Assembly: GCA_030265395.1 (NCBI GenBank)
Contig: JARFYF010000054.1
Coordinates: 11,458,795 to 11,522,794, forward strand
Direction of reading: 5' to 3'
Origin: Rhina ancylostomus
Lineage: Eukaryota
Length of the DNA stretch: 64,000 bases
This document shows, one piece after another, positions 12,349-45,191 of the stretch. The notes below the pieces were generated by a model. That model saw only the letters and a program-made list of their open reading frames with translations, was not told where the DNA came from and searched no databases. Numbering within the stretch: position 1 is the stretch's first letter; every line of letters starts with the position of its first letter. The translations under genes and the position numbers were made by a program.

Positions 12349-12473
12349 TCACCAAGGTGGAGACGTTGGCAAGACCTGGGACAGAAAAGGCACACTATCC
12401 ACAGGTCTAACTGTTATATTCACTGGACTTGGAGCAGGAGCTGGAGCTGGAGTATGGCAAACCTCAGCGGTGT
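12349..12473 (-). CDS. vezf1: Terminal coding exon
   Basis: Acceptor ttttttatttttccag|, phase 1: (D)TAEVCHTPAPAPAPSPVNITVRPVDSVPFLSQVLPTSPPW-TGA. The C-terminus resembles VEZF1 RPVESMPFLPQALPTSPPW. Confidence 0.93.
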
Positions 12474-12764
12474 CTGGAAAAATAAAAAATTGTGAGGGAG
12501 GAAGAGAAAATGAAGCCCATTAGCAAATAAATACTCTTTAGAAAGCAAAGTTTAATACTACAAAAAATACCTCCTCAATTTAAAGATGGTGTTTATCTGT
12601 TCCATCCCAAATAAAGGAAAACAGACTTTTATCAATGTTCCCGTCTCTAAAATTTGGTTTCTGGTAAAATCTAGGACAATATTTCCATTGCTAAAGCAAC
12701 GATTTGGTATCAAGGGGTTGAAGATTTAAAGAAATATTATGAGCCAGTTGAAACTCAAAGGCTG

Positions 12765-12897
12765 GCAGGATATCTTGCACCATTGTTATTTTGCTGTATT
12801 CGCTGTATTTATTATTACCATGCACACTTTACTCTGTGAGCTTCATGCAAGGAATTTCATTACACCCTGGTGTATTATGACAATAAACTAATCTGAA
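12765..12897 (+). mobile_element. LINE 3' tail fragment (related to the 31815 element)
   Basis: tcttgcacc...caaggaatttcattacaccctggtgtattatgacaataaac parallels 32159-32313. Confidence 0.55.
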
Positions 12898-15884
12898 ACC
12901 AAGTGACTGTCATCCAAAATATGCACAGAATATTTACAAAGTTTTTATCTTAAAAAAATTGTTCACAAACTTAATCTCACTTTGAATTTGTCTTTGGGAA
13001 CTGGATACCAGAGAGCTATGAACAAGTTAAAAAGTTCCATTCAGAAATATGTAAAGGCACATGTGAAATCAGTATCACATTGTTGTACAAGGAAATAATC
13101 ATTAGTGTAATGTGCCAGGTTCCAGCAGGGGACTATGAAACATTAATCGTAATGATCAATACATTTTACTATTTATAAGCTATAAAACAGTTGGCTCAGA
13201 TACAGATATATAGCATTTTATTCTTTTAAAATTAACCCTGCAGTAATGAAGCATGAGCAATGTTATATTTAAAATAAAGGAAAGTGGAAATGTAATTTGT
13301 CAAGTAAGACAAACACAATCGATAATTTATAGAAGGAGTTAGAGCAATATTTATTTACAAAACATGGGTTGTGTATTTGCGAGCACAAAACCCGTCAAGC
13401 AAAGATCTTGAACTAGGTTATGCATTCTGTTTTCTATGGGGAAGGGAGGTGTGAAGAGCAAGTAGTGAGATAGGGAAAAGGAGAGATGCTAAGCAAAGGC
13501 CAAATAGTTTCCCATTAGGGCAAAATAATGATGAAGATAAGTCATCCCTTTCCCACACATCCAAAGGGTAAATACAAGTAGTCCTGGAGCTCATCCAGTT
13601 GGCCAACTCGGAACCATACTGAAGTGGCAATGGAAAAGGAGTTCAAAATTAATTGGATATATTCAAAAGTCTTGCAAGAACAACCAACAGTAGTTACTTA
13701 TAAGGAGTGGGGCAGGGGGTAGAAAATAGTTATACTACTATTTTTCCCTCCTGTGGTAATCTCATTTATCCTCCATATTGAATTTATTCGGCATCTCAAA
13801 AAAGAACCAGCAAAGGTATGAAACACCCAAAAGTTTGAGAGTGAAAGCAGCTGTTGACTTCAAAGGAGTTCCAATGGCAAGAAAACAGCTGAACTTATTT
13901 TCAGATTCACCAGACCTCCTATGGTGCTGTCCATGAAAGGTCAAAGCAAATTTTCCTCAGTGTAATAGTGGAGTTGTGAACATAAAAACAAGACTTTGCA
14001 TCTTTTTGGCTTACAGAAGTCCACCTAAAGGCAAAAGTACAAAGCTTATATGTTGTCTTACAGAATGACGATGTCCAAGTAAGGATCATTAAATAAGGCA
14101 TATATTTATACTATATTGAAGTTTACCACATGCACACACTTATCAACTTCTTCTCATAACAAATGCCTTTGGGTACATTTATAAAACACTTGTGACACCA
14201 TAATTACGATTGTATCAGTTGGGCATGCAGCATAACAATTTATAATGGTAATATAAAAAGGATATAATAAATGACTTTAAAATGGTTATTGAATTACAGC
14301 TGTGAACCATGGTCCAATTACCCATGCATTAACTGCTTCACCTGCAAACTCAGAGGAGATTTCATTTAAATAGTTGGGTAAAATTGAAACATGAAGAATT
14401 AGGCAGATTTGTACCTATCATTAAAATTAATAGTGGCTAAAAAATATCTTCTTCAGATTAATCAAATAAAATTCACATTTAGGAATTCATGAAATGGGCC
14501 AGGGAGCCACCCAACTGAAATCTCAGGGAAAGCCAAAGTTTATGCCAAATTATTACATTCCACTGAAATGCGCCCCATTATCAGGCAGTATGTTGCAGGA
14601 ACCCTGCCAGCTACAACCCCTCAACTTTTCTGCAAGTCCACTCCCTCCCCTTCATGAAAGACCACAGGCAACCCAACAGCCTTGCAAACAAAGCTCGCAG
14701 GTTCGAGTCCCAAGACTGCCTGTCACTCCAACTCACTTGCCTCAAGCTTGGTAAGTTTTGTCAGTTCTCAACTGGGCTGCTAGATGAAGCGCCACGCAGT
14801 ACCAATGCATTCCATGTCAGGTGGGGTGAGGTGGCAGGAAAGCAGGCAGAATCCAACTCGCCCCATTTCAATTGCGCTTCCTGCTGGCCAATTGTGGAGT
14901 GGCATTGACAGTAGCTGTAGTGAAGTCCTCCCCTGAAGGGAGATGCGAGGGAAAAAGTGGCATCCATGGGAGGAAAATCTAAATTAAAAAAGCAAACTCA
15001 GGCAATTGAAACTATTAAAGTTTGTCATAACACTAACAAAAATAATAAGCAGTGTCAAGTTTTCGTTTCTAATGTTTCTAACTTGGGTTAGTGGATTGAA
15101 AATGGAAATTTAGAACTAAAGTTTCAAGATTTACTGGACAGTATTTTAGGAGACGTACATGAAATAAAATGTGGCAACCGCAAAACACAGCGATCCTTAA
15201 CTTATAGTAAAGTCTTCCATGCAATACAGTAGTTACCAGGTAGAAAACTGGATATTAAAAAGCATACATGGAAAAATATAAATAGGCATTAGTATACAAT
15301 ATATTCAAAGCTACCAGGACAATGCTCTCACTCCCAGATCACTTTTAAAGCCTTGTATTAAAAAATCAGCCGTGTACCCAAAGTTGTTAACACTTAAGTT
15401 TAAAATCAGTCGATGAGCATCAATATATGGTGTACTGAATAAATTTGTAAAGCTGCAGTTATTCAAGCCAGTATTTCAGCTTTTATCGCTAGAGGCCTTG
15501 AGAATTAGCCGTTGATGGCAGAGAACTGACAGTTTGAGCAGATTCTAACATCATCCTTTCAACCAGTTACAAAAAAGCAGCTTGGTTTCAATAAAATTGT
15601 GATGTTTAAAGATGACTGGTTCTGCTGCTTGTTACCTGCAGACTTGATCTAGTGTACAACTAACTGCCAGCATCATGATCTACAGTTACGAACATACTTT
15701 AACTGCATAACTTTGCTTCCTTTGAATCAAAGACTTCAACCTTCTACAGGTGGACAACTCGATGTTGAGGTATGATTTATTGCCTGAAAGAGCAACAACT
15801 GAAAAGTTCCACTGAAATTATCATTGACATTTTCCCAAAGTCAGATACATGTGGTATTTCAAATGCTTCCTCACCCTAATGTCA

Positions 15885-16110
15885 GAGAACACAAGAACAC
15901 CAGGAAACAGGAAGCATAGACCACCTGGCCCTTCAAGCCTGCCCTGTCATTCCATATGATCATGGTTGATATGCCCCAGGCATCATCTCTTCTTCTGTGC
16001 CAGTTCCCCATATCCCTTAATTCCCTGATCATTCAAAACTTTACCTTACCTCCTCTCTAAATGCTTCCAATCATCCAGCCTCCACAATCCTCTGGGTCTA
16101 GAATTCATAG
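15885..16110 (-). mobile_element. CR1 LINE 3' end
   Basis: agaacacaagaac...ggcccttcaagcctgccctgtcattc is the reverse complement of a CR1 tail. Confidence 0.7.
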
Positions 16111-17520
16111 AGCACCCACTGAACAAAAATGGCAACTTGTTACAAGCTGCAAGAGGTTTGCCACTAAGGGCTTAAATCCAAAGGAATAAGGCTGCCCCAT
16201 TTCATTTCATGTAGATCCCTTATGATTAAGGGCAGAAAGTATTCAGATTGGAATTTATACTCAGTTCCAGAGGAACAAGTGTAATGTGGAAATATGACAA
16301 ATCATCCAGTCTTATANNNNNNNNNGATTCAAAATAAAAATTTCTCCACACATTTCAAACACCATGTTGTAAGTACATGATTCAACTCAGTCTTCCTGCT
16401 ACTCAATCAACAGTCATTAAATAAAAGACAACTGTTAAGTAGTACTCCTCCAGCACATGAAAAGCTTGTCCTCAACTCAGCAGTTCATAATGAAAGGATA
16501 GCTGACTCTGACGCTACATAGGGGAATTCTGAGTTAAACTAATCACTCTATAATACTTTATTATAGAATGTGAATGTAGTTCACCAGAGCACTACTGGGT
16601 GAACACAATATAGCAACCAGACAGGTGTCTATAGTAAAACCAATGTAATATCCCATGCGTTCTAAAGATTAAGTTTAGTTATTAAATTAAGAATACAAGG
16701 ATTCACAATATAGCTGTAAAAACATCAAAACTCCCAAGTTTTATGTAAATACAACAAATTTTAATTGTATACAAATCACTTAATAAATTGTAAAGTGTCA
16801 TTGTTATGATTTGATTTGCAAATATCAAGGATAAAGCTTTGGGTTTTTTTTGCAAAGGAAACCAGAGCTCTCTAAATTACAACAGAGAAGGTTACCAGAA
16901 TTCAGAATTATGTATACCTTTTATAAGGGAAAAGATAAATAATTTCCATTTGTTAACCAGTCAATTATCCTGCAGGCACAGATTTAAGATTGCTGCCTAA
17001 ACAATTCAAGAAGGGATTGAAATTAGTTTAATGAGAGGAATTTTAGGGCATAAAACTAGTGAAAATAGAACTCACAATAGCTTTTAAGGGTAGTAAATAA
17101 AAAAAACATTAACAAAGCAGGTGAAGGAGTCTTAATGATTATCTGCAATACAGGTCCAACATGCACAATGAACTGAATGTATTTCTGAACTCAGTATTAC
17201 AAGATTCCATCATTCTATGGAATAATATTTATCAAGGCCCAGCTGGAAAAGCTATTGGGAGTATTAAGTGACAAAATGTTGCATTGTTGAAGTGTGAAGG
17301 GTGTGTTGGGGAAGAATCAACATCAGCCGGGTTTCTGGTAAGTAGTCATTACTTAGTCACACTGAAAAAGTTTTGATGAGTGGAGTAACCTATCAACACC
17401 CAGCCTCACAGACTAAAAACTGCCACTTGTAAAAGAAACTAGACATTGAACAATATTGTGGAAGTGTATAATTGGATGAATCTACACTTCAATTTTTGCC
17501 CAAGTTGTACAGGCATTTTT

Positions 17521-17568
17521 ACCAATCACTTCTGGGATCCAACAACCAATCACTTCTGGGATCCAACA
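17521..17568. repeat. Perfect 24-bp tandem duplication
   Basis: accaatcacttctgggatccaaca x2. Confidence 0.92.
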
Positions 17569-18384
17569 GAGCACTTTCAATCAAACAAAGGTGCAGATTA
17601 AATGGGTAAAGAAAGCAACCACGATTAGAATATGTGAAGCACTCAATCAAGGAAACAAGTAAGGGAACGAGACTGATGGCAATGTTCTGAGTGTTAACAC
17701 ATGACTCAATGGGCCAAATGGCCTCCTCCTACAGCATAACGAAACATGGTACAATTAAATTTGCTGAATGGACTTCAAGATTTATTGAACAAAAGCCATA
17801 GACAAAGTAACTTCCATCAACTACAAATGGGAATCATTTATCTGCAGATTTTTATTGCAGTCCTTTGCTTCTGACTTTCCCATTTTCCCTCAAGGGCATT
17901 TTTCAGAACAGTACTTTGCTCAAGTGGCTGTACTTTGTGTGTCAATGTAGAGTGTTACTGGGCTCTTCACCGATACAGATAAAACACCCATCCAGTNNNN
18001 NNNNNNNNNNNNNNNNNNNNNNNNNNNNNNNNNNNNNNNNNNNNNNNNNNNNNNNNNNNNNNNNNNNNNNNNNNNNNNNNNNNNNNNNNNNNNNNNATCC
18101 AGTCCCGATATCCACTAATGACAGATGCCTCAGAAATACTTCAGTCACCTCCCCCCACCCACTCCCCAAAAAGGATTTCTAAGAGATTTTCTATAATGAA
18201 TTTTATCAGGGACCACTGCACTTTAATCCAAAAATACAACTGTTAATTAAAAGTTGAAAGATAACAATTGCAAAATTAAAGATCACCTCGTCAAGATGAT
18301 TACGACCAAGCTCCCAGGATAAAAGAGCATTTATATACCATGATATTACATCTCTTAGAATTTACCAAAGCACTTCAAAAACAA

Positions 18385-20085
18385 GGGAAAAGGCTAACAA
18401 TGTTGCCAAGAAGAGCAATAAGCCTAAGGATTAGGAACATTTCTTTCCGATAAAAAAAAGTAATGAGAGTAATCAAGCAAGGAACATTAGAGTAGACTGT
18501 GGGTACACAAAAATGATCAACAAAAGCTAGGTGGGACCTTTACATACCAATGCAAGAGAAATTACAATGGGAAAATGGAAAAGAAACTAAGTAATTTTTG
18601 GTTCATCTTCATGGACGAATATACAGAAAATTTCTCAGAAAAAAAGAGATCCAGAGTGAATGAACTGAATAAAATTAGCATGAAAATGATAGGGCTAAAA
18701 GTTGGAAAATCCCTAGCACCTGATGATCTACATCACAAGATTTTGTAAGAGGTGCCTATGGAGATGATGGCCGTCTTTGTTTCGAATTCAATAGATTGTA
18801 AAATGAGTTTCGCAAATGCAGAGGCAGCAAATGTAAATTCCACTATTTGCAGAAGGGAGAAAATGGGAAACTACCCTATCAAGTTTCATAAAAATTCTAT
18901 ATATTTCTTTGAGATCACCTCTCATTCTTCTAGACTGTAGTATAGGCCCAGTTTCTCAGATATCACCAGGAAAAATGCTTCAATTATCAAGGACATGGGA
19001 GCAGGAAACTTAAAAGATAGCAAACGGGCACAGCCGACAGAGTAAATCATCTTTGACAAGTCAGCATTTTTTTTTGAGGGGAGGAACCAGTGGACGTCGT
19101 AAATTTGGACCTTTAAAACATCTTCAGTGAGGCACCACATAAAAGGTTATTAAACAAAATTACAGCATATAGGATTACGATTAAATTACCAGGCATACTA
19201 AGGATTGGTTAACAACGAATCAATAAATGGCTCATTTCCTGGTTGGGAGACAGTGAATTGAGGGGTGCCACAGGTATATATGCTGGAGGCCCAAATGTTA
19301 ACAGGTTATAGTAATGATTTGGATGACAAGTATATCGCAAAAAACAAACTGCTAGAGGAACTCAGCGGGCAGGCAGGATCTGTGGAGACAGAGGAATAGT
19401 CAACATTGCAGGTCGCATCAGGAGAACATCGACTATCCCTTCACCTCCACAGATACTGCCTGACCCACTGAGTTCCTCCGGCAGTTTGCTTTTAANNNNN
19501 NNNNNCTCCAGATTACATCTGCAGTCTCTTGCATCTCCACAGATATATCAAGTTAGCTGATGATACAAAGTTATTGGGGGTTGTAAGGAGCTCTCAGGGA
19601 GATATCAACAGGCTATGTGAATGAGCAAGGCCACAGCAGATGAAATATAATGTAAAAATGCAAGGTCATCCATTTTTGTAGAAAAACAAATGGTGAAAGA
19701 TTGAAAGGTGTTTGTGTTTAAAGGCATCTGAGTACACTTGCACATGAGTCACTGAGTTAACAAATATGCAAGCAATTAGAAAAGCAAATAGCATACAGGT
19801 CTTTTTTGCAAGAGAATTTGAGTACAAAAGCAAAACTGTTTCACTGCAATGTACGTAGGGCCCTGAATATTGTGTGCAACTCTGCTCTTCCGACCCAAGA
19901 AAGCTGCAATGGTGACAAAGGGAGTGCAACAAGGGCTCACCAGAATGATTCCCGGGAAGGGAGCATGTACTGAGGAAAGAAAAAGCAAACTTGGCCTATA
20001 CTCTCTTGAATTTAGAAGAGTGAGAGATGATCTCATTGAAATAAAGAATTCTTATGGATTTGACAGGGGGATGCAGGGAGGTGAG
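18385..20085 (+). mobile_element. Degraded CR1 LINE ORF2 fragment interrupted by a hairpin element
   Basis: RT remnants ggggtgccacagg (GVPQG), gctgatgatacaaag (ADDTK) and KLGLYSLEFRRVRDDLIE. Confidence 0.82.
19338..19540. mobile_element. Penelope-derived non-autonomous hairpin element
   Basis: Inverted arms gaggaactcagcgggcaggcaggatctgtggag / ctccacagatactgcctgacccactgagttcctc, inserted in the CR1 RT region. Confidence 0.75.
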
Positions 20086-20089
20086 GTAA

Positions 20090-21378
20090 GAGTGATTCCC
20101 CTTAACATCCAGGCAGCATTTAAATGAGTGTGGCATCAAGGAGTCCTGTAAAACTGACATCATTGGACATCAATAGCTTAACAGTCCCATGGTTGGCGTC
20201 ACAACTTGCAGAAAGGAATATGGCTGTTGTTCTTGGAGGACAATCATCCCAGCGCCAAGACATCATAGCAGGAGGTCCTCAGGACACTGTCTTAGGTCCA
20301 ACCAACTTCAGCTGGTTTAATGACTTTCCTTCCATCAGAACGTCAGAAGTGAGTATGTTCACTGATGATTGCAATGTCCATTTCCATTTGCAAATGCTGA
20401 GAAAGAGCAATCCAGCCAACATGCAACAAGACCAGACAATATTTAGGCTTGTGCTAATTAGTTGCAAGTAATATTGATGCTGAAGTATCAGGCAACGACC
20501 ATCTCCAACAGGAGAGTCTAACCATCTACCCTTGACTATCACCAGATCAGCTACCACCAACATCATGGGGGAGATGGGGTGGTTACCCCTGACCAGCCAT
20601 ATAAATATTGGGCTACAAGAACAGGTCAGAGACTGTGTGTCCTGTGTCGAATCACCCACTTCCTGATACCCGATAGCCTTTCCATCATCTGCAAGACAAG
20701 CTTGGAGTGTGATGGAATACCTTACACTTGCTTGGATGTACGGAGCTCCATAATGCAAGAAGCTTGGCGNNNNNNNNNNNNNNNNNNNNNNNNNNNNNNN
20801 NNNNNNNNNNNNNNNNNNNNNNNNNNNNNNNNNNNNNNNNNNNNNNNNNNNNNNNNNNNNNNNNNNNNNCCACTACAGAGTGGCTGAGGTATGTGCCATC
20901 AACAAAATGCAATGCAGCTAACTAGGGTACTGCAAATCTGCAACCTCTACTGCCAAGAAGGACAAAAGCTTTGTGGACATTGGAAACTTTCACCTGTAGA
21001 TTCCCCTCCAAGACACACACCATGCTGAGTTGGAAATATATCACCATCGTTTTGTCATTCACTGGGTTTAAATAGCACCACAGAATCATGCAGCACATAC
21101 ACAGGCCCTTCAGCCCATCATGTCCATGCTGACCATTAAGCACTCATCTATACCAATTCAATTTACCAGCATTTGCTCTGTAGTCTTCTAATCCTTGCAA
21201 TTCAGGTGATCTACCTACTTAATTGTGGAACTCCCAACGCAACAACATTGTGGGACTACCTTCACCAGAAGGACTGCAGTGGTTCACAACCATGATTCAC
21301 CACCACTGTCTTTTCAAGGACAATTAAATGGGCAATAAATGCTGGCCTTGCCAGCAACATCCAGTTAGCAAAAATTAA
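20090..21378 (+). mobile_element. Second CR1/L2-group LINE family, RT and 3' tail; small antisense CR1 end nested at ~21080-21220
   Basis: GGPQDTVLGPTNFSWFNDFPS...MFTDDC is a decayed GVPQGSVLGP...FADD; tail gggcaataaatgctggccttgccagc. Confidence 0.8.
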
Positions 21379-22066
21379 TTTGAAAACCACAGGCAGTACT
21401 TCTTGGTGGAATTTAGAATAGCAATGGTAATTTAAATAAGCAGTAATATTTCTATAAACTCAATATAAGACACAAAAGGAATTAACACTTTGTATTGTCA
21501 ATCCCTCATCATGAATATTTCATGCAACAGCTAACTACTGCAATTAAAGGCAAAATTGTATGTTATTTTAAATGCAAGACTGTAAAGAGTTAATATAAAA
21601 TCTGAGATACTGGGTACTCAATTCCCTACTAAAATACCTATGGCAATTCCAAAATCACTGTTCCATTTAAACTGGAGGGATAGTTCCACAATTTATGCAA
21701 GGCTCTCAAAAGAAAAGATGGAAAATATGTGATATGAAATAATTTTTGCAACCAATCTTTTAACCAGAGCCAAAAATACTGAGGCAACAGAAAGCATAAA
21801 CAGCTTGAATTAAACACGATTAGGTGAAATTGACTTTAAAAAAAAATGTTGCTCTCTGGTCCCAGGTGAATAAATACTGAGTGATCCAATCACACTAAAA
21901 AGAAATTTTTCCTCTTTTAGCAAAGGGTTGACGTAAGACTGCAATCTTCAGGATTACCCCCACTCCCAACCACCACCTCTCAAGAATCCCAAAGGGCTGA
22001 CTTTGGTTACAAAATGACCTGGTAGGAGTGGAGCTTTCTCCAGGTGACATTTATGGAGATGCTTGC

Positions 22067-22261
22067 CTTTTAAAGCCACTGCTGCCACAGAGGAGGCACT
22101 GGAAGTTGGGGTCTCTCCCATGTGACTTTTCTTGTGGCCAATCAGGTGATTGTGGGACTGACACTGCAGGCCACACTGCTCGCACACAAATCTTTGAGAC
22201 TTGTAATGGACACCATGGTGATTTCGAGCATGGACCCGAAGGTAGGCAGCCGTGGTGAAAC
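22067..22261 (-). CDS. Optional exon 5 completing ZF7 and adding ZF8 (like the extra exon of MAZ isoform SAF-2); 3' boundary uncertain
   Basis: Acceptor ctttgtgtag|G, in phase with exon 4: GFTTAAYLRVHARNHH-GVHYKSQRFV-CEQCGLQCQSHNHLIGHKKSH-MGETPTSS. It ends either at a GC donor AAG|GCAAGC (22067; 195 nt, frame-preserving) or reads on to TAA at 21954-21956. Confidence 0.85.
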
Positions 22262-24282
22262 CTACACAAAGATAGGGATTTCAGGTGATAAAAACTAAAC
22301 ACAAACAGCTTCACATCCACAACTTCAGGGGCATTTAAAAGCCTTATTTCAAAAGAAGTTCATAAAGTTAAACACGTTAACACATTTTATCACAAAACAT
22401 CAAGATTACATTAATGAAAATTATATTGTATTTTAACTGGATACAAATTTCCCTGAGAATTCTTATACAACTGCAGCATGCAGTCATTCTGATTTACTGT
22501 GCTAAAAATGTTCTTCAGTAAATTGTTATCTCACTGCACAAAAACACACAATATGTCACAATTATTGTTCTGCTGTGAAACTGTCTGTAGGTAAGAAAGA
22601 GAACCTAAGTCTTTAAAATAATGAAGCAACAATTACATTCTGCAGAAGATTTGGGAACTCTGACTTCAGGAAAAGGAGCTGGAGAGGAAAACGGCCGTCT
22701 CGCTTTATCAAATATAGTGGGGAAGTTGCAAATATTTTTGATATCATACTAGAGTCAGGAATTGTGTCCTTGGATTGAAAACTTCCTCTGTTATTTGAGA
22801 CGAAAAGTTAAGATGAGTTGAGGAAACTATAAAACAATCTAACTTTAGTTTTAGGAAGCTGTTGCAATATGTTATTGGGAAAATAACTGAGCACTTATGC
22901 TAATGTGGACTGATCAGAAAGTTAGTACAAGGAGGAAATGGCTTTATGGATGTCACCAGCCTTCTCCACATGCTCATTCTTTGGGTGCAGACAAGCGAAT
23001 ATGGATAGGCCATTGAAAAGAGATGAGCCTTCATCTGACGTTCACATATCGCACTTCTCACCAGAGGGTACTAAATTGGAAATGGCAGCGCAAATCATGG
23101 CCGATACATTTTTCATCTGTTCCCTAGTTTTATGCATCTGAAGGGCCTAACAAACATCCGACCTAAGACTAATTACTTCAGTAATGAGCAGGGGAAAAGA
23201 CAGTACATTCTTCAGCAATGTAACTTCAGGAAGAACACTTGTATACTGGCCCACAATGAGAGCTGCAAACATTCTAATCCCATGAGGGAACAAGATGACA
23301 CTCCACTTGGAGGAGCAACCTTTGTACAGGATTTTACTGCTCAATGAATTTATTATACAAGGAAATCAAACAGCAGGGTATTGTTTTAGGAGAACTGACT
23401 GAAAAAAATTATTTTCTCTTTGTGAAATATTTATCATCACTTATCTTTTATAATATGGAAAAGGACACATTGGTGTGGATTTCTGTAAACTAAAACTTTT
23501 AATTGGATTGCAATTGGATTGGCAAGAACATAATTCATATGGTGCAATATCAGAGTGTTTCTTCTCAAAAAAAGTGACAAATAGTCTGACCAGCAAAATA
23601 TTTAGGGTTTAATTGAGGAACATCAATGGAACTCCAACCTGGAACTTTCATATGAACACCTAAGGACTCTACTGCTTAAATGTATAATAAAATTCTCTGG
23701 GGATGGGCTGGGAGTTTTTTTGATGTATATAACATGCCTAGTTACACTGTAATTAGGTAAGAAAAATACCGCATCGCCACTGTTCAAACTTGCTCTCATT
23801 GCATTCCAATTTACCAACACCTGACTTGAGGATGACAAGGAACTGGTACAGGGCAGCACCCGATTATTTATGCCAACAGGTGGCAATATTAGAAGAATTT
23901 TGACTTCCTAAATTACACTTCAAGCACAGTCTAAAAGCACTCAGTTGGCATGATGATTGTTGACTAAAAGTTCTCCAGTTAAAATAGCAACCAATTTTCT
24001 CAACAAACACCTACAATAAAGGCAATTTTTTTTCAGTTGATTTCACAAAAATAAAATGTTGGGCTAAAGCTTTCCCAGTTTACATTATTAGAGTTCGAGC
24101 TTGTAATTTGGGACTTACCGAGAAAATTGTGATAAGAATACACCTTTTACTATAACACCTTCATCAAGAGGTGCAGAAATCTTTTGTTCAACTCCACAAA
24201 CTGGGAACAATAACTTTTAACACTACCTAAGGAATGACCTCTAAAATATTTTCATAAAGCCTTTTCCCACATTTATTAATAT

Positions 24283-24465
24283 GAAGACAAAAATGCTGGA
24301 ACAAATTGGCCAGCCAAACAGCAGCTGTGGAAAGAGAAACTAGCTAATGCTTCATTGACCCGAAATGTTATCTGGTTTCTTTCCACAGATGCTGCTTGAC
24401 TGACTGAGTTGTTCTAGCATTTCTTATTTTTGTTTCAGATTCTGGAATCTGCAATGTTTTTGTTT
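24283..24465. mobile_element. Penelope-derived hairpin element
   Basis: aaatgctggaac...ctgtggaaagagaaac / gtttctttccacagatgctg...ttctagcattt inverted arms. Confidence 0.7.
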
Positions 24466-24508
24466 TCCTTTTAAAAGGTATCTAGGAATTCTACCAAAAA
24501 TGCCATAC

Positions 24509-24680
24509 CTTTGTTACAGACATTGCAGTTGTGATTTTGATTGTGATTATGCATTTTGATGTGGTTGGAGATGTAAGCTGCACTCAGCAGTTTGCCACAG
24601 ATGTGGCAGGATACCTTTCCTTCGTGGCGTATCATGTGTGAACGCAGGCGATCTTTGGTGGCAAAAGCTGCATCACATGT
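24509..24680 (-). CDS. vezf1: Coding exon 4 (172 nt): ZF5, ZF6 and the CxxC half of a seventh finger
   Basis: Acceptor tcctcatag|, donor AAG|GTATGG. Translates TCDAAFATKDRLRSHMIRHEGKVSCHICGKLLSAAYISNHIKMHNHNQNHNCNVCNK. Confidence 0.95.
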
Positions 24681-26684
24681 CTATGAGGACACAAGACAGC
24701 CATTAATGACTTAGTTTGTTTTACTAAATGTATTATACAAATCATGTTATCAAATTCACTTTGACAATGATACCATTAAGTAATTCAATCATTTTAGAAA
24801 TGCAATTCTATATATTAAACACAAAATTTATTTCCAGGACCGTCAATGTANNNNNNNNNNNNNNNNNNNNNNNNNNNNNNNNNNNNNACAAACACACAGC
24901 TCTTCTAGTTTCATGCTTGCACTTGTCTGCAGGACTAGTTGCTAACCTCGGTTGCACCAGCTTCAGACGAATCTGAGCAGATGTTGAATAAACAGGAATA
25001 TTTTTTCTTATCATGAGAGCAACATGACTGGTTACAATGAAACTGACAGAACCCCAGTAGCTGGACCCTGTTGGAAAATGGCAGTTAGCTCAAATGTGAA
25101 AGGATATGAAACCCTTGTGCATTTGCTGACATAAAAAAAACAAAAGCTCTTATTTCATCACTATGAGAAGTATGGTAGAACTGAAAGTTTTTTTTAAAAT
25201 ATAAACTCCACCCATGGTTGAAAATATTTAACGGTATTAAGGAATTGGTTGTTGAGTGATTTTTGATGATCAATACTATTTTCTATTAAAGGGTTCAGTA
25301 TATTCAGTTCTGGCGTTCAGGTGACGTCAGATATAGAACAGTCAAACAAGTGGCATTTCAGTACACGTACAGGAATGTGGTACTCACCCCCTCACTTCTA
25401 TTCAATTACGTCACGACTTACCTGTTTGATAACACCACTTGCTCACCTTAGTTCTGATACTTCAACCAACAAATCCCAAATCCTAATTTAGAATCTTTCA
25501 GTCAATCGAATCTAAACAATTTTTATTTTGTGTGCGTGGGGTATAGGGGCAGGGTTGGGGGAGGGGCTGTAAACATTCTAATATTGAGTTAAGTAGGAAT
25601 TCTGATATCACTCCTGATGATACAAACCCTTGTTTTAGTCAATCACAGGGATAAATTATCATTTCCGTTTGTGATAGCAAGTAGGGAGACTTTAGTATTA
25701 GGTCCAGGATATCCTACAATAGAAATATTCTTCACATCAATCATTCGTGTGGAGCTCGAAGGTGCCAAATAGGGTGGAGAAATAAAATAAACAGTAGATA
25801 TATTCTAATAAGGCACTTGTCTGTAAAGGTTTTGTTTAAAGATCTCTAGTTCTGGATACCATTCCCTCTAGCACACTTATTTCTCCTTTATCCAATATTG
25901 TTTCATGAAGTATATTCACAATTACTCGAATTTCCACACCCCACTCAAAAAAGAAAACCTTCTAGTCTTTAAAATCAGTGGGAATGTAATTCTCATATTT
26001 ATCTACCAGTTCAAGAAACATTCCCAGTAATCTATTTTCCCTCAATTTCATGGCACATACTTGCTTAAATCTCAGTTTTTAAAATCTTCTTCCATTGCAC
26101 AGCATTAACTTTGAAGAATCTTGGAAGAGCAATACTCACAAAACCCATTTAAAGATGTTCATTTCTATAATACTTTTCCCCAAACCATGAGAATATCAAT
26201 TAAACACCACAAAGCAAATCAAGCAATTGTGATCCCCAGTGAGCAACAGGTGGACACTAGAGCACTTGGCTTGCAACTGGAAGCCCTCAATCAATATTCC
26301 CACTTTACAGTTGTTACATCAGTCTTCCCAAAGAAGGGGAGGGGTGAAGTAAGGGCAGGTTGTGGGGGAGGGGGAGTGGGGAAGACAAGACAGGAAATGG
26401 AGTTGGGCAAAGTTGGGATGGCAACCCTTCCCCGCATCCCTCAAATGAGCTAGCAAGTAACCCAAGGAGTTGCCCTGGTAGCACTTGGTAATGGACCACT
26501 TCTTCACCTTCTTCCCATGGGGATCGCAAAGATGTGCAGCAAGAAAATGATAAAATACACTTTGAGTTAAAGAACAGTTTTGGAACTTTTGACAACCTTT
26601 TGAAATTGACAATCTTTGAACATTTCTTTATCCATTTGGACAACACCTCTTAACTGGCTTTAAAACAGAAAAATAGGAAGTTAC

Positions 26685-26748
26685 TTGGCATTTGAAGGGT
26701 CTCTCTGTGGAATGAACATGTTTGACATGACAGCTCAGATGATCTGGC
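26685..26748 (-). CDS. vezf1: Coding exon 3 (64 nt): end of ZF4 and linker
   Basis: Acceptor tttcctctccag|, donor CAA|GTAACT. Translates (R)PDHLSCHVKHVHSTERPFKCQ, as in VEZF1. Confidence 0.95.
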
Positions 26749-27860: not shown

Positions 27861-28537
27861 CTGGAGAATCCCTTTCCACAAAGGCTGCAGATGTAAGGTT
27901 TGTTGATGCCCCCTTCGTGTGACCGCACGTGATAACTCATGCGATCCTTTCTCTTGAAACGTTGCTGGCAAACTGGACACTCAAACGGCTTTTCGTCCGA
28001 GTGCGAAAGTTTGTGCCGGTTGAGGTGGTAAACGTCACGGAATGCTTTGCCACACAGTTCACAGCCATGATTCTTCTTCACTCGCCTGTTTGCATTCTTG
28101 TTGGCTGTGACTGCCGAGGTGCTGCTGGTGACAGTGGAGGTTGAGGCGGCAGTTGTAGTCAGCATCCCTGCAACAGTCGACACCAGTGATGCCGTACCAC
28201 CCACACCGGGCGCTGATGACATCAGTGAAACCATGGTCGGCACTTTCCTCGGCCGTGAGACCAACTTGATTCCTGTGTGGCATGACTCATGTCGTCGCAG
28301 GTGATAACTGTCTCTGAATGCCTTGCTGCAGTAACTGCAGATCACTGGTGTTCTGGTTTTCTCCTTCTTCTCTACGGTCACTGTAGGTTTTGGTGCTTCT
28401 TTGGGATCGGGGGTTTTTGGGGCTGCAGGCAACGTGGTCACGGGGACTTGCTCACGTGGTTCATTGACTGAATGCAGTATCGGTAGCAGGTTATTCTGCA
28501 CATGTTGCTGGTGTTGCTGCTGCGAGACATCAGCTGC
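27861..28537 (-). CDS. vezf1: Coding exon 2: ZF1-ZF3 and first half of ZF4
   Basis: Acceptor ttgtgttttgtag|GCA, donor CAG|GTAAAA. Encodes AADVSQQQHQQHVQNNLLP..., CSYCSKAFRDSYHLRRHESCH, CELCGKAFRDVYHLNRHKLSH, CPVCQQRFKRKDRMSYHVRSH, CSLCGKGFSR (track ORF 27857..28501). Confidence 0.97.
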
Positions 28538-35464: not shown

Positions 35465-35592
35465 GCAGTGACCATTTATCAGAAACCTCAGAAGCATTCT
35501 GATGAAAAGTCATCGACCTGAAACACTAATCTGATTTCTCTCTGTCCAGATCCTGCCCGGTCTATGGATTATTTCCAGCATCTGCAATATTT
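35465..35592 (+). mobile_element. Penelope-derived element with a hammerhead-core relic
   Basis: CTGATGA-aaagtcatcgacct-GAAAC at 35499-35524, followed by the family arm ctctctgtccagatcctgcc...atttccagcat. Confidence 0.65.
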
Positions 35593-36742: not shown

Positions 36743-36759
36743 TATTTGCCAACAATAGG

Positions 36760-37110
36760 TTGGACAATTTCTTTACTCTCCTGGCCAGCTTCTCATCCAT
36801 TATTCTTATAAACTACACCTCATCCAAAACTCTGCTCTCACTAACCCACATCAAATGACCTCATTCTTTCTTATCTACATTTGCTCCCAGTCTCACAATT
36901 TCTCCATTAAAATCCTGTGCTCCTGTTTATGTCACCTTGTGGCCTTAAAAAAACTTGTCTAAAACTTCAGCTTCAGCCTCTTTTGCACAGTTCCTCTTCC
37001 TTGTGGTCCTTTGGCCACAGTGCTTATGGTTGTGCAGATCTCATTCACTGGCATCCCCTCCTTAACCCTGTCTCCTGTACCCATCAAAAGGAATAATTTT
37101 GAACATGAGT
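36760..37110 (+). mobile_element. Old L2-like LINE fragment
   Basis: ctacatttgctcccagtc...aaaatcctg resembles the LHWLPV...KI region of L2 ORF2. Confidence 0.4.
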
Positions 37111-40100
37111 TTGGCCATATGTTCTTCACCTTTTGTTTGGTTGTGCCTTATGTGCAAGATGGCTTGTTAAAAAGCAGAGAAAAATATTTACGCTTGCAAA
37201 GCATCTTTTCAGATTTGCAGTCAAGAGTCAACTTAGTCCCTGAAATTTTGGAAAAAAACAGCACACATGAAATTTCAACTGGTCCATTTCACCAGAATTT
37301 ATGCTGTAAAAATATGGAAAATTACAAATGATGGCTATCAAGGAAACACAATGATTGGAATTGAATATTGTTTAGAAACAGGTGCTCAAACATTTGTCTT
37401 TCATGGAGCTTTTCAGAGTGAACTGCAGTCAGAGCAAAATAGCCAACAATTTTATTTCTTTCATTTTATTCTTTGCAATTCCATAGCGAAGGCATTGATT
37501 CATGCAATATTGCTGAAGTAATTTCTGGGTGGGTCAATCTTCACCAAACAGCATAGTTTTAAACCATAGGGCTGAAGCTCAAACTTTGTAATCTAANNNN
37601 NNNNNNNNNNNNNNNNNNNNNNNNNNNNNNNNNNNNNNNNNNNNNNNNNNNNNNNNNNNNNNNNNNNNNNNNNNNNNNNNNNNNNNNNNNNNNNNNCTAA
37701 CTTTAACAAAGAAACATTTTCCAGGAATGACTGGTAAATTTTTCTCTCAATGGACATATGTTTATATATCCGAGCCCAATGGGTGCACTGAGATCTTTCC
37801 AGCTGGCACATCTTGGTACCAAAACAGACACAGTCAGCCACTGAACCATCGGGGAACTCGTTATATTTTTGTAGAACTGGTTACTGTATTTTCAAAATAA
37901 CTGCAAAAGGGGAAGATAAGGCTGATCAAATAAACTTTAAAATTAAGACACCAATGTGCCCAAGCGGTTATATACTCAATTTTTTGTGTGCATCTTGCTG
38001 CATCGCAACATGGGGAATTATTACATTTCCAAAAGGTAGTGCCTTTCTGATAGCTGCAAGACCCTGCCTGGTTGTTCTGAACATTACAGATGCCATAACA
38101 ATGCCGACAGCAGCAGAGACAAATAGCTCAGCTACCATTATTCATCTCACTGTTGTAATGTGGTCTCCGTGTCAAGTGGCTGCCACATATGCCAACGTAC
38201 AAGCAACAGTTCAAAGTAATTCAATATATTTTTGCAATGTTGAGTCCTACTAAAAATACAGTTTAAAATGCAGAATTCATTTTCATCCCTTGCTTACCCA
38301 AGTGCCAACATTCTACTTCACTGTCATATCATGGAGTTACCAGCTGCCATTAAATTCAACGTAAAGTTTTATTTAAGAGAAGTCCAACACCAAAATGGGT
38401 AGATTGCACATTGATGAACATTTGTTACTGAATTAGAAGCTAATTATCAAACTAGGGGAGTGGGTCCACATTTGGGCAGGAGGTACCAATGTAAGTAACA
38501 GATAGCGTGATACAGCAGCAAAAAGGACTGGCAAATGTAGAGATACACAGCAGGACTAATATCTCCAAAACTTCAGCCAATCCTGTGACCATTGTACATT
38601 TAGGTCAATTGTTCACACCAAGTTAAACAATTCAAAATGTGCCAATTTGAAGCATTTTTAATAAGAATTTTCCTTTAAGAAAGTGTGCTTGTATTTTGTA
38701 ATGACACTGTAAGCAGTCACACAACACTAAAGTAGTATACATGGGCGCATGGGGAACAGTATGCCGTTTGAGCTCAATATAATTTGATGACAGTCCCTAG
38801 AGTTCAGTTGAATCTGGTGATAAAGAGCATGGTGTAGTGCCTTGCAGGGTTTGCTCTTTGGTGGGTACCAAGGGTTTTGTTACTGTGGAGCTCTATTACA
38901 TACTCTAACTTAATGTGTCCACACAGATGATTTGAATGTGCTCCAGAGTGCCTGATATCTACCAGCTTGTAGGTATCACTTCTACAGGCATAAGTTCTAC
39001 CGAAGTTTCAGTCATATTTTATTTGAGATGGAATTACAAAGCACCACAGTTACTTCAGTTTAACTATTATGCCAGACAACACATTCCACTCAGGGTGTTA
39101 CTCACAAGTGAACTAATGTAGGGTAAACTCCATAGGGATTGGGAAGGATGTTCTCTGTGACCTTCTGCACTGCCACCCACAGTAGCTAAGTGCACAATAT
39201 GACATGGGAGCGTGTCCAGGAAAGAAGCCTGCACACCCTTCAAAATGCTTCTGCATTATTTGCTCCTTTTCCTAATTTGATGCAGTGGGATCCTCCAAGA
39301 AACTTGCTTCCTAACTTAACATCAAAAGGCACTGTCAAATATTTTGTTTACAAGTAACAAAAAAACCACTATTACATCCAAAAAATTTCAGTTTTTCCAC
39401 ACCATTCAAACTAAACACTGCCTCCATAGCTAAAGTCTGATCTGATGACATCATTAAAAGAAAATTACAACTTGAGCCAATCAACTCGGAACAAAATCAC
39501 TCCCTGGTAAATCCCCACAAATATGTGTCAACCAAATTTGCCTTCAGCTCATAAAAAGGCAGTGCAGGAAAGCCTGGTTGTTCGACAAGGCTCTGAGATA
39601 ACAGCAGCAAAGGAAATCCAGAGAGGCACGACCAAATTTACCAGCTTCAACAGAATCCACAAGGCCAGTATTGGTTATCAAACCACAATAAACATTTCAG
39701 CGTGAATTCTACTATGAAGTGGGAAACCATAATCAGAAACCTATACCATTTGTTAAACAAAAAGATTATCCTCAAATTAACTTAGCTTTCAGTCTGTTAA
39801 AAACAACTGGGCCAGTTAGTCCTGACTGAAATAATTTTAAGTTTTTATGATTCTGAAAAGTCAGTTGTCTACATTACATGCTTAAGATTTAAAGTGAAAA
39901 ATTGCTCCTTAATGGTTTGAAAGGCAAATATCTAAGGGCAGGGAACTCATTTCTCCTGGCAGGGATATTGTCCACTCCGATATGGATATGTCTGCTGGGC
40001 AATGCTTCATCCTGGATGACAACAGCTTCAAATGTTCAATATAGCCCAGAGTGCAGTTTCAGTAAATTTGTAGTCATTTTTACAGGATTTGTTGCCCAAG

Positions 40101-41091
40101 TCCAACATTTATTATCCTATTTCTAATTGTCCTAGAGAAGGGGATAATGAGCCATCTTGGCCCTTCCCAACCTTCAAGTAACTTATGAAAGTATGTAATT
40201 TGATCTGATCAAGAGTTCGAATTCAGATGCGGCACTAAAACCTACTAGAGGAATTAACAGAAAAATCCTGCCAGGATTTCTGCTGCTATAAAGCAACAGG
40301 ACCCATGAAAGTACAGGAATAAATCTGTTTCTCTTTCCACAGACCTTGCCTGACCTGCAGAATATTTCTAGTATCTTCTAATTTTATCTCAGATTTGCAG
40401 CATCTGCCGTATTTAAGATGCAAGTAAAGCAAATGGATAAGGATATAGTCAATCCACATTGGAATCGTCATCCTTTGCCCTCCAGGTTAAAACAATTTGC
40501 TATTTACTAGAGTCTAAAGTCAGACATAACTAACTGCCAATGCCAAAATTTTCAAGAGCAAAAGGTGACCCAAGTAAAATAAGATTACTAAGTTCAGAGC
40601 AGTGGCGAAAACAATAAACGTCTACAAGTTTCCTATAACTAGTAAGAGGATTTTTGTCAACAGGTTAAATGTTTATTAACATTCTAGTTAACAGAGTTTT
40701 CCTATCAGCTTTTCTTGAAAAGAATTCTCATTGCAATTTATTTCCCAGCATTCCCAACATTAATTTAAATTAGATGCTAATGATGTTGGCAGAGAACCTC
40801 TCTAGGACAAGTTACTGAGCCAGATGGTACAAAGCAACCAATCAATCCACTGGACCAACATCCTTCAGCAACTTTCAATTATATCAAACTGGTACAGTAG
40901 CTCCTCCCTCACAGAGCCAGACTAGGTAATTCCACAGAGGTCACTAACACAAAACAAAATTCAGAAAAATGAGGGAGATCAAATCAGTCTTGATCTTTCA
41001 GTTTAATTGCAATAAATATGCAGTTTCCTCTGTAATTAACTTTGTGACAAGCAAACAATGAAAGACTGATTGAAGGAGGAGAAACACCAAA

Positions 41092-41215
41092 GGAGACAAG
41101 AGACTGCAGACGCTAGAATCCAGAGCAAAAACAATCTACTGGAGAAAGTCAGTGGGTCAAGCAGCATCTGTGGAGGCAGATGGTTGACATTCTGAGGTAA
41201 GACCCTGCATGAAAC
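41092..41215. mobile_element. Penelope-derived element (single arm)
   Basis: gagacaagagactgcagacgctagaatc...gcagcatctgtggaggca matches the left arm of the 28736 copy. Confidence 0.7.
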
Positions 41216-41594
41216 ATCAAAGGAGCTTCCAGGTTAAAAGCTCAGTGGAACTGACCAACAATATGGCAGAGATACTATAATTACTCTCAATAAGACTAAT
41301 GAGGAGAATGGAATGGGGGAGACATAGGAGAAGAGGATAGGATTCCAATTACCAATTTTTACTTGCTGATGATAGGGAAGAACATGTTCTCAATGGTGAG
41401 GTATTCTACTAACACAGGTCATCGGGTCAAGTAATTCAAGGCCACTTTGGTCACTGCAGTACAGAGGCTTGCCAGCTGCCATGAAACCATACTCCAGTTT
41501 GCTATTTCCTTTGCCAGAAGATGAAACAAAACTGGACAAAAATGAAAAACAAAAATGCACATGCTAGAAATCTGAAATAAAAATATGGAACAAG

Positions 41595-41912
41595 CTGCCA
41601 GAGGAAGTGGTTGAGGCCAGTACAACAACAACATTTAAAAGATTAAAAAAAGTACATGACTAGGAGGGGTTTAAAAGGAATATGAGCCATATATGCAGGC
41701 AAATTAAACTAGCTTGGTGGGCACCATGGCCAGCATAGGTAAATTGGGCCAAAGAGCCCATTTTCATATTACTCTATGACTCCAAAGACAGAAAATACTT
41801 GGTAGGTCAGGCAGCATCTGTAAAGAGATAAACAGGATTAATATTTCAGGTTGATGATCGGCCACTAACCTGAAATATGAACTCTGCTTCAGCTCCACAG
41901 ATGCTTGCTGAA
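41595..41912 (+). mobile_element. CR1 3' end (to ~41782) followed by a Penelope-derived hairpin fragment
   Basis: ccagaggaagtggttgaggc...gggccaaagagccc, then caggcagcatctgt...ccacagatgc. Confidence 0.7.
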
Positions 41913-42879
41913 CAATTCACTCCTTAACAGAAAAACTGTAAATGTTCTTGCAAAAAGTATGCCTGTTGCTTTAATACAGCAAACAAGTTAGATTTACAAA
42001 GAAACACACACTAAGGCATTGATCAACTTCTCAAATATGTCTGCTAACATCTTGAGCTCTCCATACAAAGCCCCTAGAGAAATGGGGTCAAACTCCATGC
42101 ATCCTTTAGGTCTCATTCACCCAGCATCTTCATTCTCAGTAACTCTAAATCTTTCAAAGATTGAGAGTTTTCCAAACTTTCAACCATTCTACATATTCAC
42201 CAGTCCTGGGCTGTTCCTTCCCAAGGCTCTTCAGTACCAGAATTTCAGCCCACCTTCTGGAATCTCCTGGCTTGGTCACGCAATATCCCAACTGCCTTTG
42301 ACCAGACAGTCCCCCTCCCACTCAGCCTCTTCCCAATCTGTTCTGCCACTCATCCACTACAACTAGCTCAGCTTGTCCTTCACCAACAAGTTGTTTGACC
42401 CATTTCTTGGCCAAATTAGGGTGAATTATGCTAAGACCCCCCCCCCCCCGCCCTCACACAAGCACAAGCTGCTGTAACACATCAAAATAGAGGAAGACCT
42501 GTAGGCCATTAAGCCTCTCAAACCAGTCCTATCATTTAATGACATGATTGAACTATGGCCTCACTCTATTCAACCTGCCTTTACCCCAATTGCACTACAT
42601 CAAAAATTCATTACCAGTTAAAAAGTATTAATTGGTCTTGCATCACCTGCTTTTCACAGCAGAGTTCCAAACAGCTACAACTGTTCCACATGAAAAAGTT
42701 CACTAACTTTTAACCCTGAGAAGGTCCAATTTTCAAACCAGTTCTTCTTGCCCTAATTTCTCTGGAGGGTGGAGATAGTTTTCCCAACTTGCCAAGAGTT
42801 ACTGATAGTATTTTGACAATTTTTTTTAAAGACAGTCCAAGTTTATGTAATCCAAGGCAATCTCTTTCCTAAAGGATTT

Positions 42880-43312
42880 GGTTCTTGCCCTATGCAATTC
42901 TCAGCAAAGCAGCCCACCTATTTGGTACTCCATCCACACCCTGAACATTCCTGCCCTCCAGCAGCCCACTGTGGCTGGAATGCACACCTTTTTGCAAAAT
43001 ACACTTCAGCTATTCACTCAGCTACTTCAACATCACCTCCCAAACCTGCACTCTCTACAAGGAGCAGCAGGTACAAGGAATAGCTGCACCTGCAAGTTCC
43101 CAAGTTGTAGATCAGCCTGATTTGGATATATATCGCCATTCCTTCTTTGTCGTTGGATCTAAAGTCCTGGAACTCCCTACCCAACCCAACAGCACTGAGA
43201 GAGCAACTCCACAACACAGTCTGAAGCAGTTCAGCAGCTACTCACCAGGTTGTCAAAGGCGATAAATATTGGTCTTAACAGCACTGCCCACATCCTGAGA
43301 AATGAATAAATA
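42880..43312 (+). mobile_element. LINE 3' tail of the 20090 family
   Basis: cacctgcaagttccc...gataaatattggtctt parallels 20990-21350. Confidence 0.7.
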
Positions 43313-44597
43313 TGAAACAATAGTGGAAGCTCATAACTCAGGAACAGATGCTATTTTCCCTCCTCTTGAATATGGTATTTGGTTCCACACCTATGCTTCA
43401 CCAAATTATTTTATATCTGACAATATTGATCATAAGGAAGCGTGCTCCTGAATCCAATTCACATATAAAAGTTGCAACTAACATGTATACTCACAGGTGA
43501 GGCTGCTGAAGAGTTTTTGCTTGATATTTTTTCTCCTTCCTAACTCATGAGCACTAATGCCTGATTATTTCTACTCCTTCACTAGCTGATTCAACAACCG
43601 ATATCAAAGCTGGTCAAACATGACTAAGGCTGCAGCTAAACCTACTCAGTCACATTCACAGTCTCCTACATTTTATGTCAAAATGCAGAAACAAAACACC
43701 AGCTAATACCATAAAGAGTGGAAGTGCAAAGATGTGTAGGGTTTGTCATGGAAAGGTATGCTGGCAGATTTACACAAATTATGCACACACACTTGTGGAT
43801 ATCCCAGTCACAAGGAAAAACTGATCACCAAGCACTACAATACAGACTTTGGATTCCTTGGTTGTTTAATCACATCAGTTGTACACAATACACACAGAGA
43901 GAAGCAGTGTTAAGGTCTAAGAAAAACTGCATTAAATTAATGAAACTGGAAAGTTGGAAATTAGCACCAATGCATAAATCTTAACTGAGAGCAAGCAGAC
44001 TTGCATCAATAAAACAGATCCCTATTGACAAGACCATCACAATTTGATATGTTTTGAAAAGCAACAAAAGCCATACATTTCAGTAAACTAGTTTTTTTAA
44101 AGCGATTCTACTCACTCAGAACAAAGGTGAACTTTCAACAGCAAAAATTCTGGAATTAACTTGTTTAGTGTGTACGAAATATTTCAATCATCAGTTCAAA
44201 GATCATGGCACATGAAGAAAATTTAAAAAGCATATTGCTTGCCATCAACAGATTTAAACCACAGAAGAAGTGTATTACCAATATTTTGCATACTTAGAAA
44301 AGCACTAAACCAGAAAACTAAAATAATGGATGATTTGCATAATTCTTAAAACAAACTAAATAAAATTGTCGTTCAGCTGTGTAGTGAAATCAAATGCATT
44401 TTTTATTGTACAGAATCAAAAGATTTAAAATATACACAACAGGATCAAAAATGGTTGTTGACATAAGAATGGGTATGTTTGAGTATGGGTTGGATGCCAT
44501 TTGACTGAAATTATTCTGCCACAGAACTCAGTAATGAATTGAAGCAGTTAATGCTTAAAAATAACAGGTATTTGCTTTTACAAATAGAGAATTTAAT

Positions 44598-44900
44598 GCA
44601 AAGTTAATTGTTGGCCTGCAGTTTAGAGTAAATAAATACACTGCAAATGTTGGGCTGCAGTTTGGAAAAACAAATGCACTGCAACTGTTGGATTGCAGTT
44701 CAGAGTAAATAAGTACACTGCAAATGTTGGGCTGCATTTAGGAATAAATAAATGCCCTGCGAGTGTTGGGACTGCAGTTTAGAGTAAATACCCTGCAAAT
44801 GTTGGGCTGCAGTCTGGAAAAACAAATGCCCTGCAATTGTTGGGACTGCAGTTTACAGTAAATAAATGTATTGCATTTGTCGGGTTTCAACTCAAAATGA
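44598..44900. repeat. Minisatellite, ~8 copies of a 36-40 bp unit with two alternating variants
   Basis: Repeated gcaaatgttgggctgcagttt followed alternately by agagtaaata... or ggaaaaacaaatgc... Confidence 0.9.
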
Positions 44901-45157
44901 ATGCATTACATTCTCGCGTGTTTTGGTGTGCGGAGAATGGAAGTGTTCTGCTTGGCGAGTGTTGCACTGCCGGGTTGGAGCCCAGCTGGGTGCCCGCCTG
45001 GGCCATTATGCCGCTGCCTGGCCGGGCTCGTCTGCAGCTCAGCCCAGGCAAAGCGCACACACACACACAACAAAAAACCTCCCTCCTCGCCGCCGCCTCC
45101 TGCAAATCCCGCCTCCCCCGCCGGCCCAACCGCCGCGCCCGCCGTCCGCGGCCTCAC

Positions 45158-45190
45158 CTGGAATATAAAGGCGCCCCAGGTCGCCTCCAT
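45158..45190 (-). CDS. vezf1: Coding exon 1 (MEATWGAFIFQ)
   Basis: ATG at 45190-45188 has G at -3 and +4. 33 nt, then donor CAG|GTGAGG. Resembles the VEZF1 N-terminus MEANWTAFLFQ and lies inside the CpG island. Confidence 0.92.
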
Positions 45191-45191
45191 T

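Follow-up and report, generated by a model that had tools for sequence, protein, structure and literature searches.

The locus described here raises the question whether a zinc finger gene combining features of VEZF1 and MAZ belongs to one of these two genes or constitutes an additional member of their family. The gene lies in a stretch of 64,000 nucleotides from Rhina ancylostomus (G000:C54:11458795-11522794), hereafter termed the window, with positions counted from its first letter. An earlier note on this DNA had described a spliced gene at 12349..45190 as a mosaic of VEZF1-like and MAZ-like motifs, possibly close to the ancestral form of the family, and had proposed it to be either a chondrichthyan MAZ or an ohnolog lost in mammals. 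The gene itself is real: it runs on the minus strand from 45190 to 12349, its six exons splice into an open frame and the named motifs are present. With a probability of about 0.9 we regard it as the cartilaginous-fish ortholog of VEZF1, equipped with an alternatively spliced exon that was likely present already in the shared precursor of VEZF1, MAZ and PATZ1 and determines whether the protein has six or eight fingers. Its mosaic look is due to this optional, likely ancestral two-finger exon, which is carried by ray VEZF1, occurs also in MAZ and is absent from the bony-vertebrate VEZF1 sequences examined.

The flanking genes, a check suggested by the earlier note, are those of VEZF1, as the window gene is flanked by CUEDC1 on one side and by SRSF1 and a gene for a dynein light chain on the other. 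CUEDC1 and SRSF1 are both encoded on the minus strand, the former about 97 kb downstream (CUE-domain exon at C54:11373946; best PDB match CUE domain-containing protein 1, E 3e-30) and the latter about 24 kb upstream (approximately C54:11528100-11530900; first RRM exon 98%). The dynein light chain gene follows past SRSF1 on the plus strand (C54:11569009-11570554) and is taken as DYNLL2 rather than DYNLL1 by position. In a duck study the gene order is given as Mrps23, Cuedc1, Vezf1, one Loc gene, Srsf1 and Dynll2 (PMC13255704), and a table for human 17q22 contains those same genes (PMC4256931). A tree-shrew model in which SRSF1 is fused to VEZF1 (P0066) also puts SRSF1 upstream on the same strand. 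The check covered CUEDC1, SRSF1, DYNLL and MRPS23.

This neighbourhood argues against a slow-evolving chondrichthyan MAZ that is mislabelled VEZF1-like by similarity, a reading favored by a finger-7/8 exon resembling that of the MAZ splice form MAZ-2, by the motif RMSYH and by the short last exon. Phylogeny points in the same direction. In a tree of 47 rows and 245 columns, calculated for the part shared by all isoforms (from finger 1 through exon 4), the window gene grouped with VEZF1-like proteins from sharks and rays (support 94/78) and these in turn with bony-vertebrate VEZF1 (99/98), while shark and ray MAZ formed a clade of their own. Approximately unbiased (AU) tests, for which 23 rows of this tree were used, rejected topologies uniting the window clade either with MAZ as a whole (p 0.0101) or with shark and ray MAZ (p 1.1e-13).

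Individual residues agree with this placement. Among the 17 columns that separate bony-vertebrate VEZF1 from MAZ, the window gene exhibits the VEZF1 state in 10, the MAZ state in 2 and neither in 5. Because PATZ1 carries the MAZ state at 6 of those 10 columns, the VEZF1 states there qualify as shared derived characters. With regard to base-contact residues, fingers 1-4 equal VEZF1 at the four contact positions, with MAZ deviating in fingers 1 and 4; finger 5 is as in bichir and finger 6 differs at one position. Of the motifs formerly read as MAZ-like, RMSYH held up, being present in 49 of 124 MAZ proteins and in none of 136 bony-vertebrate VEZF1 records. CPVCQQRF, the CNK end of exon 4 and EVC proved not to be specific for MAZ: CPVCQQRF occurs in coelacanth VEZF1, the last exon of bichir VEZF1 begins with DTSEVC, and a CNK-type exon-4 end is found in 69/136 non-chondrichthyan VEZF1 records. 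Database names are unreliable in the VEZF1/MAZ/PATZ1 family; two teleost records named VEZF1 nest within MAZ in the tree, and a record from stingray, labelled PATZ1-like, belongs to the MAZ cluster (P0169, P0213 and P0140 are misnamed records).

Three in-frame searches of the genome yielded only the window gene, PATZ1 (contig C46) and a fragment of MAZ, with no sign of a fourth paralog; no other VEZF1 appeared in these searches, which score best candidates in an assembly fragmented into 65,984 contigs. The MAZ fragment is the finger-7/8 exon, flanked by tandem repeats, with 48 of its 52 residues identical to stingray MAZ and 28 of 52 to exon 5 of the window gene. This fragment (G000:C49830:1-657, 65% GC) and MVP (G000:C49628:1-660, 67% GC), which we take to be a neighbour of MAZ just as PAGR1, both reside on tiny GC-rich contigs, suggesting that the MAZ region is poorly assembled. 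A search of the genome for PAGR1, run with no positive control, was blank. Loss of MAZ from Rhina ancylostomus, considered when the first two genome searches came back without it, was dismissed once the third had found the fragment; an unassembled MAZ region can mimic gene loss. Proteins named MAZ exist in nine shark and ray genera, and Hypanus, Mobula, Narcine and Stegostoma each possess both the VEZF1-like gene and a distinct MAZ. Taken together, VEZF1 synteny and a separate MAZ locus refute the identification as MAZ, to which we assign next to no probability.

The same evidence bears on the second identity proposed earlier, an extra ohnolog, here taken as one that bony vertebrates have lost and that exists beside a true VEZF1 located elsewhere. 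Such an ohnolog would fit with exon 2, which is only about 60% identical to bony-vertebrate VEZF1, and could escape notice in so fragmented an assembly when only best candidates are scored. It is nevertheless very improbable, as the gene occupies the CUEDC1-SRSF1-DYNLL slot, as the genome searches gave nothing besides this gene, PATZ1 and the MAZ scrap, and as its clade is sister to bony-vertebrate VEZF1, matching the species tree.

The feature that lends the VEZF1 ortholog its mosaic look is apparent from the gene model, the elements of which are as follows.

45001..45400, no strand: GC-rich and CpG-rich stretch across exon 1, likely a promoter island (base composition).
45158..45190, minus strand: exon 1, coding part, with ATG, 11 codons and GT donor; resembles the N-termini of elasmobranch VEZF1-like proteins.
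27861..28537, minus strand: exon 2, N-terminal region, fingers 1-3 and first half of finger 4; shares a spliced contig with exon 4 (run X1).
26685..26748, minus strand: exon 3, rest of finger 4 and beginning of finger 5 (RNA joint 24680-26685).
24509..24680, minus strand: exon 4, fingers 5-6 and the Cys pair of finger 7 (spliced frame, RNA joints).
22067..22261, minus strand: exon 5, a cassette of 195 bases, phase 1-1, with the His pair of finger 7, the whole of finger 8 and a GC donor, AAG/GCAAGC (RNA joints).
14761..14978, minus strand: exon 6a, alternative last coding exon, 72 amino acids (RNA joint, RefSeq models).
12349..12473, minus strand: exon 6b, coding part, a short tail with SPPW end, followed by a long 3' untranslated region (spliced frame, RNA contig).

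The spliced protein comprises 421 amino acids and eight C2H2 fingers when exon 5 is included, 356 amino acids without it, and 452 residues when it ends in exon 6a. Finger 7 is divided, its Cys pair closing exon 4 and its His pair opening exon 5, so that without exon 5 six fingers and an unpaired Cys pair remain, and with it finger 7 becomes complete and finger 8 is gained. Exon 3 codes for PDHLSCHVKHVHSTERPFKCQ. C2H2 Pfam matches in exon 5 are weak and below the cut-off. All introns have GT-AG ends with the sole exception of the intron 3' of exon 5, which is of the GC-AG type; exon 5 is devoid of an in-frame GT donor and ends at AAG/GCAAGC. In two 200-base bins, the putative island exhibits a GC content of 0.69 and 0.62 and a CpG observed/expected ratio of 0.99 and 0.53, compared with a GC content of 0.30-0.49 in the flanking fully sequenced bins.

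Evidence for splicing stems from a related species, of which raw reads from three RNA runs and two sets of contigs were compared with the locus, in a second round under a stricter likeness criterion and over a shorter stretch; the joint of exons 1 and 2 lies outside the stretches covered. The joint of exons 3 and 4 (24680-26685) is crossed by 2, 12 and 20 reads in the three runs. Skipping of exon 5, i.e., exon 4 joined directly to exon 6b, is documented by 3, 0 and 4 reads and one contig, the joint of exons 4 and 5 by 0, 4 and 4 reads, and the joint of exons 5 and 6a, with GC-AG ends, by 3, 0 and 5 reads. First mates over the exons are mostly plus-strand, the pattern expected for minus-strand RNA in a stranded library. 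RNA from a close relative thus shows exon 5 both skipped and included via the GC-AG donor, which may tune its inclusion.

Exon 6a (14978-14761) had been overlooked in the earlier note. It is well conserved in 9 shark and ray records and matched no Pfam family. A GC-donor-like site, GAG/GCAAGT, is situated 20 bases past its stop (window 14978-14741), exactly where an X1 contig ends; exon 6a may thus also be usable as an internal exon, and no splice joint out of it is among the RNA joints listed. The 3' untranslated region (12349 to below 11000) is conserved in RNA of the related species, with a 5846-base X1 contig beginning at exon 6b and extending beyond 11000.

How exon 5 is distributed was assessed in a set of VEZF1 records consisting of the best 120 of 695 matches plus cluster members, with isoforms included and taxa assigned from source names; two records without finger 6 and one zinc finger protein 91-like match (P0058) were left out of the finger-7 counts. 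A complete finger 7 is encoded in 11/15 chondrichthyan records and in 0/69 ray-finned, 0/1 coelacanth, 0/5 amphibian and 0/59 amniote records, and none of the 134 scorable bony-vertebrate records contains the product of exon 5. The orphan Cys pair of finger 7 is present in all 65 coelacanth and tetrapod records and in none of the 69 ray-finned ones. On the MAZ side, 120 of 124 records include a homolog of exon 5, the four without it being shark models that skip the exon. A search with the exon 5 region as query gave 2 candidates, too few to bear on whether the exon is absent elsewhere.

A homologous exon exists also in PATZ1 of this genome, a gene on C46 with BTB and AT-hook parts, at G000:C46:3096977-3096795 and with the same position and phase; it completes finger 7 and has no intact finger 8. 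As exon 5 homologs are found in both MAZ and PATZ1, the exon is likely ancestral, and the finger-7/8 exon, optional though it is, does not define MAZ. The predicted in-frame end of the PATZ1 exon is the same AAG/GCAAGC site, with a GT site 31 bases on predicted to lead to a stop. AAG/GCAAGC was the only predicted in-frame route found from the homologous exon into the last exon, and a GC-AG intron is possibly common to VEZF1 and PATZ1. Four splice forms of PATZ1 are mentioned, with no details on exons, in one report (PMC12425865).

These observations help to judge whether exon 5 was acquired later, by gene conversion or exon shuffling from MAZ into a VEZF1 ortholog of cartilaginous fishes, which would render the gene a true mosaic. 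The first 12 residues of exon 5 equal ray MAZ and the exon is missing from bony-vertebrate VEZF1 records, as such a transfer would have it. However, agreement with ray MAZ falls to the 28 of 52 residues given above when the whole exon is considered, PATZ1 shares the exon at identical position and phase, and the Cys pair left behind in coelacanth and tetrapod VEZF1 is expected after loss. Moreover, the MAZ exon ends in a stop, whereas exon 5 of the window gene has a GC donor at its end, as is predicted for the PATZ1 exon too. We consider this transfer improbable; a single ancestral exon that was lost from bony-vertebrate VEZF1 is the simplest reading.

Two further traits of VEZF1 turn out to be restricted to certain lineages. 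In agreement with the earlier note, tblastn with five polyQ/LRLWE exons over window 9001-24600 gave no convincing match to such an exon (best E 0.065), and a long Pro/Thr tail is absent. The LRLWE-type motif occurs in 58/59 amniote, 0/5 amphibian, 0/1 coelacanth, 1/69 ray-finned and 0/15 chondrichthyan records and, being lineage-specific, does not define the VEZF1 family. Between exons 4 and 6b there are 219 N bases; since the polyQ exon is essentially restricted to amniotes, no such exon need hide in them, and the concern about sequence gaps is moot. The amniote polyQ exon was considered as a decayed exon 5 and rejected: 447 and 457 of 500 shuffles scored as high, compared with 0/500 for the stingray, vole and lungfish MAZ controls, such that the two exons have only their position in common. 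The long Pro/Thr tail is present in VEZF1 from bichir, coelacanth and bat and absent from shark VEZF1 and shark MAZ; about 54 residues follow finger 6 in the window gene vs. 135-206 in the bichir, coelacanth and bat proteins. Polyglutamine exon and Pro/Thr tail are likely later additions. The slot of exon 5, i.e., the interval from exon 4 to the last exon, holds short optional inserts in VEZF1 of ray-finned fishes and of amphibians, each of the two groups having its own (P0048, P0086, P0049, P0053 and others).

The notion of a near-ancestral form therefore stands for the exon layout, namely the finger-7/8 exon and the short tail, and falls for both identities that had been attached to it. Of the three observations named beforehand as refuting the earlier proposal, two were made, namely nesting within VEZF1 and VEZF1 synteny. 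We consider it fairly probable that the switch between six and eight fingers is older than the duplications giving rise to VEZF1, MAZ and PATZ1, with the weak GC donor kept in VEZF1 and PATZ1, and that VEZF1 with six fingers represents a truncated derivative. In this view, sharks and rays would have retained the full switch, coelacanth and tetrapods an orphan Cys pair and ray-finned fishes not even that. In bony-vertebrate VEZF1, exon 5 would have been lost and the Pro/Thr tail lengthened, with amniotes likely refilling the same slot with the polyQ exon.

Several points weigh against VEZF1 orthology with an ancestral switch. The loss of exon 5 in bony vertebrates is judged from protein records, many of them isoforms from the same species, with no bony-vertebrate genome searched, and the MAZ-side set is biased to exon-bearing proteins because the query had the exon. 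As the PATZ1 exon lacks an intact finger 8, seven fingers can be assumed with more confidence than eight for the common precursor of the three genes. An LRLWE-like stretch occurs in one of the 69 ray-finned records (P0040). The sets analysed contain no VEZF1 from chimaera, lamprey, gar or lungfish, and PATZ1 is a lone long-branch outgroup that, as the tree tool warned, joins the VEZF1 side; the AU value of p 0.010 derives from a rooted test and is subject to the same pull. RMSYH and one further column are in the MAZ state in the window gene, and PATZ1 agrees with bony-vertebrate VEZF1 at RMSYH. RNA support comes from another, related species with 3-5 reads per exon 5 joint and run, and the joint of exons 5 and 6b is not among the RNA joints listed, its basis being RefSeq models P0122 and P0133 and the ends of X1 contigs.

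The gene and its isoforms are already included in RefSeq as VEZF1-like models from elasmobranchs (Pristis pectinata XP_051891882.1, Hypanus sabinus XP_059829373.1 and XP_059829376.1, Amblyraja radiata XP_032901507.1). Identities amount to 451/452 for the sawfish model and to 413/421 and 348/356 for stingray/devil-ray models, and apart from names that give no hint of extra fingers there is no real difference. VEZF1 (DB1/BGP1) is described as a protein with six C2H2 fingers whose targets at the chicken HS4 barrier are G-rich elements and whose nearest relative is MAZ (PMC2795164); the similarity of VEZF1 and PATZ1 to MAZ is stated elsewhere (10.1101/2023.04.25.538167). The window gene agrees with bony-vertebrate VEZF1 in its locus, its place in the tree, the contact residues of fingers 1-4 and the SPPW end, and differs from it by optional fingers 7-8, a second last exon, a shorter tail and the lack of a polyQ exon.

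An optional exon that supplies two fingers after finger 6 is reminiscent of human MAZ-1/MAZ-2, where, according to two studies, retention of one exon confers two more fingers on MAZ-2 than on MAZ-1 (the SAF-1/SAF-2 pair; PMC12102611, PMC5622404). Unlike in MAZ, where the exon terminates the protein with a stop, exon 5 of the window gene, a different gene, reads via its GC donor into either last exon. PATZ1 (MAZR) has the same finger array and the homologous finger-7 exon; unlike PATZ1, the spliced window protein is without BTB domain and AT hook, only zinc-finger Pfam families being detected in the near-identical RefSeq model P0122.

Given that the contact residues of fingers 1-4 equal those of VEZF1, the window protein probably recognizes the G-rich elements to which VEZF1 of chicken and human binds and, as judged from its sequence, would act at promoters and chromatin barriers. 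Skipping of exon 5 would yield the six-finger form and inclusion the eight-finger form, and by analogy to MAZ-2 the latter probably has altered DNA binding or activity. Published results on the activity of MAZ-2 disagree, with opposing effects on one reporter and both forms activating another (PMC5622404), and one paper leaves the role of fingers 7-8 in MAZ-2 open (PMC12102611). What these fingers do could be probed in sharks and rays, whose VEZF1 has a naturally occurring form with eight fingers. No solved structure of VEZF1 or MAZ was among 10 matches at E 1e-25. In a literature search that did not extend to subscription papers and supplements, we found no paper on cartilaginous-fish VEZF1, the phylogeny of the family or the retained exon. 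The gain is modest and mostly of interest to specialists of the VEZF1/MAZ/PATZ1 family: an ordinary ortholog with one ancestral feature. A false lead is removed, there being neither an extra paralog nor a disguised MAZ, and a clean case of differing exon loss among three duplicated insulator-type factors is provided.

Among the remaining reading frames of the window, those at 53567-54280 and 37792-38253 gave no Pfam match. Frames at 50402-50962 and 48874-49293 resemble retroelement remnants. MRPS23, which is adjacent to CUEDC1 in the duck and human lists, is located on C54 at 7443200, i.e., 4 Mb from CUEDC1; a local rearrangement has likely separated the two genes.

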